Source: Candidatus Methylomirabilota bacterium
GTDB taxonomy: Bacteria; Methylomirabilota; Methylomirabilia; Rokubacteriales; CSP1-6
Length of the DNA: 45,520 nt
Reading direction: 5' to 3'
Assembly (NCBI GenBank): GCA_046726415.1
Contig: JBKPAK010000178.1
Location: forward strand, 1 to 45,520
This document shows positions 32,968 to 36,196 of the stretch, in pieces. Each line of letters starts with the position of its first letter. Within the stretch, counting starts at the first letter, position 1. The notes under the pieces were generated by a model that was given only the letters and a program-made list of their open reading frames with translations, had not been told where the DNA came from and ran no database searches. A program made the position numbers and the translations under genes.

Positions 32968-33681
32968 ATGGCGATGGCGAACAAGCTCGGGGCGGAGTTG
33001 ATCGGCACGTTCTGGTTGGTCCTGGGGGGGTGCGGGAGCGCCGTTCTGGCCGCCGCGTTTCCCCACGTGGGCATCGGCCTCCTGGGCGTCTCCTTGGCCT
33101 TTGGGCTGACCGTCCTCACGATGGCCTACGCGGTCGGTCACATCTCCGGATGCCACCTGAACCCGGCGGTGTCCGTGGGGCTGTGGGCCGGCGGACGATT
33201 TCCTGCCTCCGATCTTATCCCGTACATCATCGCCCAGGTGGTGGGGGGCACCATAGGAGCGGGCACCGTGTATCTCATCGCGAGCGGCAAGGCTGGATTC
33301 GACGTGGCCAGCGGCCTGGCCTCGAACGGCTACGGGGCCCACTCTCCGGGCGGCTACTCGCTGTTCTCCGGTGCCGTCACCGAAGTGGTCATGACGTTTC
33401 TGTTTCTCATCATCATCCTCGGCGCCACGCACGGGCGCGCGCCGGCCGGTTTCGCGCCGATCGCCATCGGGTTCGGCCTGACCCTGATCCATCTGATCAG
33501 CATCCCCGTCACCAACACGTCGGTGAATCCCGCGCGCAGTACGGGACCGGCGCTCTTCGTCGGGGGCTGGGCCCTGCAGCAGCTGTGGTTGTTCTGGGTC
33601 GGCCCCATCATCGGCGCGCTGCTGGCGGGTGTCGTCTATCGCTGGCTGGGTGGACCGTCGACCGAGGTATCTGGGGCGTAA
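32968..33681 (+). CDS. aqpZ: Aquaporin Z
   Basis: [13 protein letters not shown] and [12 protein letters not shown] boxes; [18 protein letters not shown]. Confidence 0.96.
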
Positions 33682-33715: not shown

Positions 33716-34114
33716 TCACCGCAGGGTGGTGGGCGGAGGCCCCGTCGGAGGCACCACCGTGAGCCACGATGTGCTGCACCGTTGGACATAGGGGTAGTAC
33801 CCCGCGGGTTCCGGGCAGTAGTACCAGTAGGCGGTCGGGGCCGGCGCCGGGGGCGCCGGCCGGGCCACGACGACGGGCGCCGGCGACGACACCACCATAG
33901 GGGGCACCGGCGCAACGGCGGGAGGAGTGGTCGCCGCGACGGCGGAGCCGACGATGATGAGCGGCGCCGCCACCAGGGCGCTGGCCACGACGAGGGGAGC
34001 GGCCAGGATCGCTACCGGCCAGGGCCAATAGGCACAACCCCAGGCATGCGCCGGGGTGGCCGCCGTGCTGACCAAGAGGACGACCATCAGAAGCGCCGTC
34101 AACAAGGGCTTCAT
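33716..34114 (-). CDS. Exported Pro-rich hypothetical protein with a C-terminal YWYYC..YYPYV..C module
   Basis: Signal peptide ending AHA, Pro/Val-rich linker, YWYYCPEPAGYYPYVQRC; SD GGAGGA before ATG 34114. Confidence 0.75.
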   Translation of the reverse strand: MKPLLTALLMVVLLVSTAATPAHAWGCAYWPWPVAILAAPLVVASALVAAPLIIVGSAVAATTPPAVAPVPPMVVSSPAPVVVARPAPPAPAPTAYWYYCPEPAGYYPYVQRCSTSWLTVVPPTGPPPTTLR

Positions 34115-34349
34115 GTCTTCCTCCTCCCCGCGGGTCTCGACGGCTCCGTCCAGACCAGGGCGGCCAGCGCCAACGCCGCCACCATGAGCATGCTCTGTGT
34201 GGCCGGGCCTGGTCAATTGAGAAGGCTCAACCGGTCGCGCGCGCCGGCATGGGGGCGGACCCGGATGCTTCTGCTTCATGGGGATGTGGCGTAGAGTGGG
34301 CCCCGGGTCGGGTGTGCTGCTCCAGACCTTCACGAACGTGGAGACCGCG

Positions 34350-35093
34350 ATGAAGCCAGTCGTCTACTACAAGCCCGGCTGAAGCTCCTGCGCCAAGACG
34401 AAAGAGTTGCTTTCGTCATGGGGCCTCTCCTTCGACGGGGTCGATCTCGAGCGGTCGCCCGAGCGCTGGGGCGATCTCACGCAGCGCGGGATTCCGAGCT
34501 ATCCCGCCACGATCCTGGGCGAGCGCGCGGTTCATGGATGGAACCCCGCGGCCCTGGCCGAGCTGGTGGGCGTCACCTACGATGCGGCAAAGCGCTTCAG
34601 CGCCCCGGAGCTGGCCGAAAAGCTCGACGCCATCCTGGCCGCCAATCAGCGCGTGCTGCGGCAGATCCCGCCGAGCCAGCTTGGGATGCGACACCCGCTA
34701 CGAGATCGGAGCGTGCGGGATCTCGGATTCCATATCTTCCGCTTGAGCCAGGCCTTCCGCGACTGCCGGGAGCAGGAGCGCTTTCCGGAAACGTGGCTGC
34801 GCGAGGGAGCGCCGACGGAGATGCACGACGGAGAGGCGGTGGCCCAGTATGGCCAGGCGGTGCGCGATCGGCTGGCCCAGTGGTACCTCCGGCCCGCCTG
34901 GTGTGACGGCATCGTGCATACCTACTACGGGTCTCACCCGGCGTTCGAGCTGATGGAGCGGACCACCTGGCACGCCGCTCAGCACCTGCGCCAGATGTAC
35001 TGGTTCCTCGATCAGCTGGGCATTGTCCCCCATGGAAAGCTCACCGATGCGGATCTCGCCGGGCTGCCATTCCCGACGGAGGTGTGGTCGTGA
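34350..35093 (+). CDS. Glutaredoxin-like (UxxC) domain fused to a DinB-like four-helix domain; probable selenoprotein, 247 aa
   Basis: ATG 34350 MKPVVYYKPG-[TGA 34380-34382]-SSCAKTKELLSSWG, in frame with the 228-aa ORF; cis-Pro loop GIPSYP; DinB histidines RSVRDLGFH and WHAAQH. Confidence 0.85.
34384..34424 (+). promoter_or_regulatory. Putative bacterial SECIS hairpin
   Basis: Perfect 8-bp stem GACGAAAG (34397-34404)/CTTTCGTC (34410-34417), loop AGTTG starting 23 nt after UGA with G second; possible lower stem GCTCC/GGGGC. Confidence 0.7.
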
Positions 35094-36196
35094 AGCGCGG
35101 TCGCATCGCCGAGCTCGAGCCGATTCTCGTCGAGGTGCCGTTCAAGCAACCGGTGGCGGGTGTGCACGGCACACGAGCGAACCAGCAGAGCGTGCTCCTT
35201 CGCGTCGTGTTGGACGACGGCGTCGAGGGATGGGGCAATGTGGACCCCACGCCCGGCTACTCCGCGATGAGCGGCCAGGAGGTGTGTGCGACCGTCCACC
35301 AGCTCGCCGCCGCGGTGGTGGGCCTCGACCCGTTCAACATTCACCGCGTGCTGGCCGCGATGGACGCGGCGGTTGAGCATCGATTCGAAGCCAAGGCCTT
35401 GGTGGAGATGGCGCTCTGGGATCTCGAGGGACGCGCGCTGGGCGTTCCGGTGCATCTCCTGCTCGGCGGCCGTCTGCGGGACCAGGTCACGCTGAACGCG
35501 TGGATCGGGACGGTGGCTCCCGAGCAGGCCGCGCGCGAGGCGCTGGACTGGCTGGCCCGCGGGTTCACGACGGCCAAGATCAAGGTCTCGGGTACCGGGC
35601 CCGAGGGGCAAGAGCGCGTGGCCGCTGTGCGGAAGGCGGTGGGCGATCGCATGGCCCTGCGCGTGGACTTCAACGAGAGCCTCCGCGCCGAGGAGGCCAT
35701 CGCCTGCATCGATGCCCTCGAGCCGTACGGTCTCACGCTCGCCGAGCAGCCGCTCCCCCGCGACGACATCGCCGGGCTGGCCGCGATCCGCCGCGCGGTT
35801 CGCACCCCGCTGATGGCGGACGAGAGCGTGCAGGACGAGGCCTCGTTGATGGAAATCATCCGCTGCGGGGCGGCGGACATCGTCAAGGTCAAGGTGATGA
35901 AGCAGGGAGGGCTTCTGCGCACCCTCCGGATGATCGAGATCGCCGCCGCGGCGGGAATTCGCTCGGTGGTCGGGCACGGCTTCGGGCTGTCGCCGAGCAC
36001 ACTGGCCGAGGCCCAGATTGCCGCGTGCAGCGCCGCCGTGCTGCCCGGCTGCGAGGCGGTGGGGCCGCTCAAGATGGCGAGCGACGTCGTCACCGCGCCG
36101 GTCGAGCTCGATCACGGGGTGATCGAGCTCTCCGACGCCCCTGGCCTGGGCTTTGCCATCGACCGCGACGCCGTCAAGCGGCTACGGGTGAGCTGA
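35090..36196 (+). CDS. Mandelate racemase/muconate cycloisomerase (enolase superfamily) protein
   Basis: KIK, RVDFNE, EQP, ADES, KVMKQGG; GTGA overlap with the upstream fusion gene. Confidence 0.9.
   Translation: MKRGRIAELEPILVEVPFKQPVAGVHGTRANQQSVLLRVVLDDGVEGWGNVDPTPGYSAMSGQEVCATVHQLAAAVVGLDPFNIHRVLAAMDAAVEHRFEAKALVEMALWDLEGRALGVPVHLLLGGRLRDQVTLNAWIGTVAPEQAAREALDWLARGFTTAKIKVSGTGPEGQERVAAVRKAVGDRMALRVDFNESLRAEEAIACIDALEPYGLTLAEQPLPRDDIAGLAAIRRAVRTPLMADESVQDEASLMEIIRCGAADIVKVKVMKQGGLLRTLRMIEIAAAAGIRSVVGHGFGLSPSTLAEAQIAACSAAVLPGCEAVGPLKMASDVVTAPVELDHGVIELSDAPGLGFAIDRDAVKRLRVS

Follow-up and report, generated by a model that had tools for sequence, protein, structure and literature searches.

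We analyzed a 45,520-nucleotide stretch of DNA from a Candidatus Methylomirabilota bacterium (GenBank assembly GCA_046726415.1, contig JBKPAK010000178.1; hereafter, the window) and found on its forward strand, at positions 34350–35093, a gene whose predicted product fuses an NrdH/glutaredoxin (Grx)-like domain, with selenocysteine (Sec) at the first position of its redox motif, to a DinB/YfiT-type domain. The gene has an in-frame UGA that its orthologues share, that is flanked on either side by conserved coding sequence, and that aligns with Cys in homologues; a stem–loop with a G in its apical loop lies shortly past this UGA, and selA, selB, selC, and selD are present in the genome, as expected of a bacterial selenoprotein gene. 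Judging from the sequence, we hold with high confidence that this is a genuine selenoprotein gene that annotation has cut short, and with good confidence that its product is a genuine Grx–DinB selenoprotein in which Sec11 and Cys14 have a redox role.

Results

The reading frame continues through an in-frame TGA

The frame that starts at the ATG at 34350 encodes MKPVVYYKPG, meets a TGA at 34380–34382, continues with SSCAKTKELLSSW, and remains open until a second TGA at 35091–35093. With the first TGA read through, the product has 247 residues and carries Sec at position 11, whereas the open reading frame (ORF) listing with translation table 11 starts the gene at a TTG at 34407 and gives a product of 228 amino acids. 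The original prediction, made from the letters of the window, had described an ATG preceded by a Shine–Dalgarno sequence, the interrupted motif MKPVVYYKPG-TGA-SSC, and a 228-residue ORF called too late, and all of these were found where it had placed them. The best 120 public protein matches were likewise 160–230 amino acids long, and none covered the N terminus; their names were "hypothetical protein," "DinB superfamily," or "glutaredoxin," and one was assigned to Candidatus Rokuibacteriota. The public records examined reduce the gene to a "hypothetical" or "DinB" protein of 222–228 amino acids, so that the catalytic residue and one whole structural element are absent from the databases. A motif scan for further UxxC/CxxU read-through frames in the window gave 68 candidates, and all but the Grx–DinB gene resembled off-frame noise of GC-rich DNA. 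The features of the gene, all on the forward strand, are as follows.

34340–34343, forward strand: Shine–Dalgarno-like GGAG, 6 nt 5′ of the ATG at 34350, read from the sequence
34350–35093, forward strand: predicted complete coding sequence of the selenoprotein, with 247 codons and a TGA terminator at 35091–35093, from translation with TGA read as Sec and from full-length homologues in relatives
34350–34583, forward strand: NrdH/glutaredoxin-like thioredoxin-fold domain, residues 1–78, with β1 at residues 4–7, Sec11 at the N-terminal end of a helix at 12–23 and invariant Pro52
34380–34382, forward strand: in-frame TGA read as Sec11, the first position of a U-S-S-C redox motif, at a column conserved in relatives
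34393–34421, forward strand: hairpin of the selenocysteine insertion sequence (SECIS) type, with core stem 34397–34404/34410–34417, loop AGUUG at 34405–34409 and lower stem CCA 34393–34395/UGG 34419–34421, from folding
34590–35054, forward strand: DinB/YfiT-type four-helix-bundle domain, residues ~81–235, from a Pfam match and fold searches
34731–34733, forward strand: codon of His128, first putative metal ligand, invariant in 32 of 32 sequences and at least 90% conserved in a 50-sequence wide alignment
34971–34985, forward strand: codons of His208-x-x-x-His212 (WHAAQH; His208 at 34971–34973 and His212 at 34983–34985), the other two putative metal ligands, neither of which varies among the 32 sequences

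The TGA is conserved, with coding constraint on both sides

The TGA was followed in a set of 61 related genomes and in 151 genomes sampled evenly across the phylum; these tallies take in three unpublished genomes (G025, G135, and G011), and dropping them shifts each count by one or two and alters no conclusion. The related genomes contained 52 full-length matches, 51 of which, distributed over 50 genomes, carried the in-frame TGA. All 30 loci that were read individually had TGA at the same (G)USSC column. A start codon was located 9–13 codons 5′ of the TGA in 24 of these loci, and several had an upstream stop within 13–22 codons; among the other six, two were truncated by a contig end and one had no start codon in an open upstream frame. 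In the phylum sample, 91 of the 151 genomes gave a match at E ≤ 1e-25 (99 match rows). Exactly one in-frame TGA was present in each of the 90 rows that covered residue 11, and the remaining nine rows, which begin at residue 47 or later, had none. The matches were concentrated in two families of one order, with 77 of 93 genomes in one (f1) and 11 of 11 in the other (f4), against 2 of 46 genomes in the other nine families of the sample.

Coding constraint runs across the TGA, and the codons on both sides of it evolve as coding sequence. The Arg codon at −3 has an entropy of 1.79 at its third base versus 0.36 at its first two, the Pro codon at −2 varies among CCC, CCG, and CCT, and the Ser codon at +1 is AGC in some sequences and TCC/TCG in others. 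The original prediction had allowed that reads might show TGC or TGT at this site or that the TGA might be confined to one strain, and neither proved to be the case: besides the genomes counted above, independent soil-metagenome contigs match the window across 34380 without a difference and keep the TGA (X2 record 1, 34200–34423; X3 record 12, 34309–34403). In these soil data, contigs of many relatives also stack on 34370–34437.

A SECIS-type hairpin follows the TGA

The core hairpin consists of GACGAAAG (34397–34404), the loop AGUUG (34405–34409), and CUUUCGUC (34410–34417), which form a perfect 8-bp stem with G at loop position 2, as the original prediction had claimed. The CCA at 34393–34395 is able to pair with the UGG at 34419–34421 and so to extend the core. 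The hairpin starts 14 nt past the TGA, a distance in keeping with the spacing rule of the bacterial SECIS model, and it is embedded in the coding sequence for K-T-K-E-L-L-S-S. A conserved apical guanosine is a feature of bacterial SECIS elements in the account given by the Sargasso Sea survey (PMC1088965). The window contains 33 perfect 8-bp hairpins with loops of 3–10 nt per strand, and only 3 of the 520 TGA triplets on its forward strand are followed by such a hairpin starting 8–23 nt downstream.

In an alignment of 27 distinct sequences, 95.3% of 297 cells in the stem were paired, versus 37–57% when the 3′ partner was slid by 1–3 columns. Two pairs showed compensatory changes (AU to or from CG and GC to or from AU; 12 cells), and the covariation score was reached by none of 500 shuffles; the stem shares its nucleotides with the codons for K/R-E-L-L-S/A-S, which entangles changes in amino acids with changes in pairing, and the sequences are related to one another. 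A covarying hairpin in homologues, for which the original prediction had asked, was thus found at this level.

Two side observations concern this region. The TTG at 34407–34409 that gene callers take as the start codon falls in the apical loop of the hairpin. In addition, nucleotide-level conservation among co-occurring relatives peaks over 34370–34437, which spans the TGA and the hairpin; over the same interval, summed contig depth rises 5- to 20-fold in three runs of soil metagenomes, and the loose ends of these contigs resemble the N-termini of relatives.

The genome carries the Sec machinery and a second copy of the gene

The source genome (7.6 Mb in 352 contigs, 98% complete) was searched for the Sec machinery, whose presence the original prediction had left to be established. 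Genes for SelA (592 bits), SelB (374 bits), and tRNA-Sec (71 bits) were found together on contig C313 and that for SelD (336 bits) on contig C223, all over their curated cut-offs. The selD gene (L011, G000:C223:11994-12938) itself carries an in-frame TGA, in the context SCAG-TGA-ASK; a perfect 8-bp hairpin with G as the first loop base lies 13 nt past it, in a geometry close to that of the Grx–DinB gene.

A second copy of the family is encoded in the same genome (L055, G000:C347:5393-6136), with 45% identity to the window protein and a GUSSC motif with TGA. A strong hairpin (−30 kcal/mol over 60 nt) accompanies this paralogue, which lies directly 3′ of an enoyl-CoA hydratase gene (L180:4212-5387), with genes for an FGE-sulfatase-domain protein and an aminotransferase further downstream; the arrangement with enoyl-CoA hydratase recurs at two other Sec loci and one Cys locus. 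Most related genomes, as well as the source genome (G000:C84:15431-15694), also contain short glutaredoxin-like matches (query residues 4–76) with an in-frame TGA, which may be small Grx-like or UXX-star selenoproteins, fitting a selenoprotein-rich lineage.

Sec and Cys alternate at the same column

If the TGA encodes Sec, homologues are expected to have Cys or TGA at its column, as the original prediction noted, and this was observed. A close homologue (L054, G008:C139:25657-26400) has Cys at the Sec column, in the motif GCSSC; its genome also retains a Sec copy (G008:C34). An exhaustive profile-free search returned 721 relatives at E ≤ 1e-3, including 51 distant relatives whose matches begin at about residue 5 and reach the end with 28–37% identity (50 proteins of 247–276 amino acids and one 721-residue fusion). 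CxxC occupies the Sec column in 49 of the 51 (CSSC in 29, CTSC in 17, and others in 3) and is lost in two, and the HxxxH motif is retained in 50 of the 51. Many other relatives begin just past the motif, and one of them, P0203, was traced into metagenome contigs, where 44 loci were found. The 38 of these that include the N terminus (L136–L173; the six partial loci were left out) constitute a second clade with ~35% identity to the window protein, in which 17 loci have G-TGA-(T/S)SC and 21 have G-C-xx-C. Most Sec forms of this clade share another hairpin, UCGGCC-CGUGA-GGUCGA, ~32 nt past the TGA; the mean folding energies of its Sec and Cys forms differ little (−15.6 vs −14.0 kcal/mol).

A quick maximum-likelihood tree of 110 rows, from which near-duplicates, partial loci, and L040 were left out, nests the Cys locus L054 within the phylum's otherwise all-Sec clade (clade support 100). 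This tree requires at least three Sec/Cys switches on well-supported branches and five overall.

The family as a whole is widespread: at least 566 genome stretches encode a relative, mainly in metagenome-assembled genomes (MAGs) of Burkholderiales and Alphaproteobacteria, and the cultured species Paraburkholderia caffeinilytica and Enterovirga aerilata carry the Cys form. ESM Atlas clusters matched by L054 bear the automatic name "DinB superfamily/Glutaredoxin domain-containing protein."

Variants of the architecture were also seen. The 721-residue protein P0217, from a metagenome, is a triple fusion in which the N- and C-domains of MmgE/PrpD are followed by Glutaredoxin and DinB_2, and an MmgE/PrpD gene adjoins the family locus L089, which together may hint at a metabolic (dehydratase/isomerase) context. 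P0217 came from the profile-free search; a search for longer fused relatives with alignment A3 found none at E ≤ 1e-10, which is weak evidence of their absence. Stand-alone DinB-like frames without the Grx part, ~160–200 residues long and matching residues ~82–246, occur at G011:C61:6477-6959, G106:C99:8020-8502, G082:C163, G084:C21, and G115:C109, and represent split or single-domain forms of the family.

The product combines a glutaredoxin-like domain with a DinB-type domain

Residues 4–58 match Pfam Glutaredoxin (PF00462) with 32.6 bits against a cut-off of 22.9, and the same model is over its cut-off in 12 of 12 homologues. Pfam DinB_2 (PF12867) matches residues 95–216 with 21.0 bits (cut-off 24.8); it exceeds the cut-off in 7 of 12 homologues, and the paralogue in the same genome scores 34.5 bits. 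The best PDB sequence matches of the N-domain are small glutaredoxins and NrdH. The NCBIfam NrdH, YruB, and Grx3 models score far under their cut-offs, which places the window protein outside those equivalogs. The UXX-star and HUGP-GUXX-star models (NF041212, NF041211, and NF045501) likewise gave only 13–23 bits against cut-offs of 66–325; these proteins have Sec near the C-terminal end, whereas Sec is residue 11 of 247 in the window protein.

An AlphaFold2 model built from 32 family members had a pLDDT of 91.3 and a pTM of 0.87. In this model, a strand at residues 4–7 is followed by a helix at 12–23, which would place Sec11 at the N-terminal end of the helix, as in CxxC proteins with a thioredoxin fold; the loop with the expected cis-Pro would be that of Pro52. 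Residues 1–75 of the model superpose on NrdH (1h75) with Z 13.2 and a root-mean-square deviation (rmsd) of 1.5 Å over 74 residues (TM 0.86). The rest of the model adopts the four-helix bundle of DinB proteins, matching DR0053 (6iz2) with Z 15.3 and an rmsd of 2.1 Å over 141 of 144 residues. VIA-align matched more than ten DinB entries at Z ≥ 12, and Foldseek gave TM scores of 0.73–0.82. Other superpositions of this part included YfiT (1rxq, Z 13.2), the mycothiol-dependent maleylpyruvate isomerase (MDMPI; 2nsg, Z 12.1), MST (8f5v, Z 12.0), the DinB domains of EgtB/OvsA/SenA (Z 10–11), and BstA (5wk0, Z 9.8). The fold searches found no solved chain that covers both domains convincingly; glutathione S-transferases (GSTs) matched over the whole length only loosely (Z about 9–10 with an rmsd of 5–6 Å in VIA-align, and an rmsd of 12–16 Å in Foldseek).

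The residues that are invariant in the 32-sequence alignment are U/C11, S12, S13, C14, P52, G63, W64, P66, R118, R120, H128, R131, H208, Q211, H212, R214, Q215, and a C-terminal LPxP. In wide alignments, two Cys, the Pro, one His, and an RQ pair are invariant, and each of the remaining two His reaches 90% conservation or more; the invariant His of the wide family is the aligned second one (H214 in the numbering of alignments A3/A5). Clade A has an invariant G63-W64-x-P66 (HGWNP), which we take to stand at a place comparable to that of the WSGFRP motif of NrdH. The conserved residues thus include the His triad of the DinB/YfiT superfamily, its members being putative metal ligands. With the PF00462 match, the invariant U/C11, and the aligned Cys homologues on one side, and the invariant H128/H208/H212 and the modeled DinB fold on the other, the original prediction held both in placing the TGA at the first Cys of a glutaredoxin CxxC and in recognizing a fused DinB domain with a His...HxxxH triad.

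Neighboring genes and thiol-synthesis genes

The window gene lies among a MetE-like gene, an aquaporin gene (32968–33681), a proline-rich ORF, an MR/MLE (enolase-superfamily) gene, and an amidohydrolase gene. The proline-rich ORF (205 amino acids; 33716–34333, reverse strand) lies between the aquaporin and selenoprotein genes and has a hydrophobic stretch and no Pfam match. The MR/MLE gene (35084–36196) would overlap the last 10 bases of the selenoprotein gene if the GTG at 35084 is its start.

A tblastn search of five window neighbors against 31 related loci gave no match. Pfam searches revealed no common partner at 29 Sec loci, for which the longest frames on the flanks were used (53 frames), or in the flanking frames of 52 of 80 Cys loci (100 of 150 chosen frames). 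Recurrent neighbors were few across Sec and Cys loci: enoyl-CoA hydratase at 2 + 1, luciferase-like at 2 + 2, ApbA at 3, and gamma-glutamyl transpeptidase at 2. Gene neighborhood was therefore dropped as a guide to function, the neighbors not being conserved in relatives.

Models of GshB and BshC found no match in the 98%-complete genome, a result that is only suggestive. Two matches to the MshC model (387 and 330 bits, cut-off 485) are probably cysteinyl-tRNA synthetases, and the score of an EgtB-like gene, 246 bits, is under the cut-off of 360.

Discussion

Relation to known proteins

Sec-containing glutaredoxins (Grx, PF00462, UxxC) are listed as experimentally verified in Table 1 of a 2026 inventory (PMC13188914), and the Sargasso Sea (2005, PMC1088965) and Global Ocean Sampling (GOS; 2008, PMC2398784) surveys described "Grx" and "Grx-like" UxxC selenoproteins defined by their Grx domain. 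Such proteins share with the window protein the thioredoxin fold, the UxxC Sec at the N-terminal end of helix 1, Cys homologues, and a downstream SECIS with an apical G. They are described, however, by the Grx domain alone, whereas the window protein has an additional 165-residue DinB-type domain with a His triad. The texts of the two surveys and of the inventory do not mention DinB, a distinction that sets the proteins apart by their descriptions and not by their sequences, and some of the survey "Grx" entries may belong to the Grx–DinB family. The 119 prokaryotic selenoprotein families of Table 1 in the inventory include no Grx plus DinB entry, and the terms DinB, PF12867, mycothiol, and maleylpyruvate are absent from its text; NCBIfam r20 has no model for the Sec form of Grx–DinB. 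Full-text literature searches pairing selenoprotein with DinB, or DinB with glutaredoxin, fusion, or bacillithiol, returned nothing relevant. The inventory, citing Deng et al. 2026, mentions a Methylomirabilota MAG with 63 predicted selenoproteins, and these candidates may include the Grx–DinB gene.

Among known structures, the NrdH-redoxins (E. coli 1h75, Corynebacterium 4fiw, and Mycobacterium 4hs1) are the closest to the N-domain, being its best structural match and among its best sequence matches in PDB and NCBIfam. The window protein nevertheless differs from them in its NCBIfam NrdH score (31 bits vs a cut-off of 86), its USSC motif, its fusion to a second domain, and the absence of a ribonucleotide-reductase context at its gene. 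The C-domain shares a four-helix bundle and a His...HxxxH triad with the DinB/YfiT superfamily (BstA/YfiT, MST, MDMPI, and the EgtB/OvsA/SenA DinB domains), but identity to the window protein is just 8–16%, and the single-domain BstA, YfiT, and MST have neither a fused Grx nor Sec. According to PMC4360819 and PMC10950700, BstA/YfiT and MST, which are S-transferases for bacillithiol and mycothiol, depend on a metal; in DinB-family proteins conserved His residues hold this metal, and in MST the thiol is stabilized via it.

The Cys-type Grx–DinB_2 fusions of Pseudomonadota, at the 28–37% identity given above, have the same architecture, CxxC column, and His triad and end in a C-terminal GLPxP; they have Cys in place of Sec, need no recoding hairpin, and are automatically named "glutaredoxin," "DinB family protein," or "hypothetical." Since they too are uncharacterized, they add no function. 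The original prediction had held that no characterized protein has this architecture; we likewise found none that is characterized, but proteins built in this way are not uncommon, Cys forms being abundant in Pseudomonadota. A Grx module fused to a catalytic partner is also found in the hybrid Prx–Grx HI0572 (1nm3) and in a Grx/ferredoxin-disulfide-reductase fusion (7pwe), where it serves as a built-in reductant. The partner domains of 1nm3 and 7pwe are unrelated to DinB, and the partner in the window protein has no conserved Cys to recycle.

A possible mechanism and its alternatives

Translation would start at the ATG at 34350, and the UGA at 34380 would be decoded as Sec by the genome's SelA, SelB, tRNA-Sec, and SelD, directed by the hairpin at 34393–34421. 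The active site of the N-domain would be G-U11-S-S-C14 in an NrdH/glutaredoxin-like thioredoxin fold, with Sec11 as the attacking nucleophile and Cys14 as the resolving residue of a selenol/thiol couple. The DinB/YfiT bundle of the C-domain, through its His128/His208/His212 triad, may hold a divalent metal, as in the superfamily. The substrate would be thiol-reactive (a disulfide, S-conjugate, electrophile, or metalloid), with the DinB metal site holding or activating it, and the resulting selenenylsulfide might be re-reduced by thioredoxin reductase or a low-molecular-weight thiol. Since Sec11 and Cys14 are the sole conserved redox residues, we favor a selenol/thiol couple that acts on a DinB-held substrate. 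The chemistry so sketched is tentative, and we give it less than even odds. The analysis shows the gene with its recoding signals, the alternation of Sec and Cys, both folds, and the conserved residues, whereas metal binding, the substrate, the reductant, and the facing of the two sites are inferred.

A bolder version of this scheme, which we consider improbable, is that the protein is a self-contained GST analogue assembled from unrelated parts, whose DinB metal site binds the co-substrate and whose own selenolate replaces the free thiol used by BstA and MST. If true, it would be the first selenoenzyme in the DinB superfamily, a reductase, de-conjugase, or isomerase that needs no thiol cofactor, and it would suit a genome in which no glutathione or bacillithiol synthesis genes were detected.

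The same selenoprotein could instead be a GST-like S-transferase or de-conjugase for a low-molecular-weight thiol, in which the DinB metal activates the free thiol and the Grx domain only binds or recycles it. This is the version put forward in the original prediction, which proposed that Sec chemistry could be coupled to metal-dependent thiol conjugation. The superposition of the C-domain on MST, BstA, and MDMPI speaks for it, and the domain order, with a thioredoxin fold ahead of a helical domain, recalls GSTs, as do the weak whole-length matches; but neither GshB nor BshC was found in the genome, the MshC-model matches are under their cut-off, and no thiol-biosynthesis or exporter gene is a conserved neighbor. 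The invariant dithiol-type UxxC/CxxC, moreover, favors redox cycling over simple thiol binding. We regard a thiol S-transferase as unlikely, although it is the best of the alternatives to the redox role of Sec11/Cys14.

That the TGA at 34380 is a true stop, with a 228-residue product from the TTG at 34407 and the ten upstream codons as a leader or non-coding sequence, agrees with the reading of the gene callers but is very hard to sustain. Pfam detects the N-domain from residue 4 on, and such a product would lose β1 and the entire active-site motif of that domain. Selection acts on the upstream codons at the level of amino acids, the frame of Cys homologues runs uninterrupted through the column, and the TTG itself lies inside a conserved hairpin loop. 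It is just as implausible that the TGA is read as another residue (e.g., Trp, Cys, or Gly) through a reassigned code or leaky termination. Read-through alone does not identify the residue, yet this gene and its neighbors terminate in ordinary TGA stops, the Sec system is complete, a hairpin with SECIS geometry follows, and the column alternates only with Cys, at a redox CxxC. A nonsense mutation, pseudogene, or assembly error of a single genome can be set aside, since 50 of 61 related genomes share the TGA, as do all 90 covering rows of the phylum sample and independent soil contigs, and the downstream frame is intact and conserved.

Several results weigh against a Grx–DinB selenoprotein with a redox role. 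On the recoding side, the folding energy of the 61-nt stretch is unremarkable (z = −1.8; 11 of 200 shuffles fold equally well), both the codons that overlap the hairpin (K/R and S/A changes) and the relatedness of the sequences confound its covariation, and an Rfam search of 34250–34550 gave just two chance-level matches (E > 5). The only contig of RNA run X20 on the window gene spans 35077–35200, 3′ of the recoding site, and is consequently silent on the expression of that site. On the protein side, the DinB_2 match of the window protein is under its cut-off, no NCBIfam model reached its cut-off (sub-threshold matches were to YruB, NrdH, TIGR03086, and UXX-star), and the DinB domain has no conserved Cys. 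Finally, since no neighbor is consistently conserved, gene context gives no functional support.

Significance

What appears to be new here, or at least uncatalogued, is the documented DinB fusion, its near-fixation in a soil lineage, its duplication in the genome, and the repeated switching between Sec and Cys. The finding defines a large two-domain enzyme family whose Cys members in cultured Paraburkholderia and Enterovirga are open to bench study; in practical terms, it allows the gene to be annotated correctly and gives surveys of selenoproteomes a profile model. Within one order of a soil phylum that is reported to have very large selenoproteomes (PMC13188914), the Sec form comes close to being universal, and it connects selenium with the DinB (S-transferase-like) superfamily, in which the literature examined names no selenoprotein.

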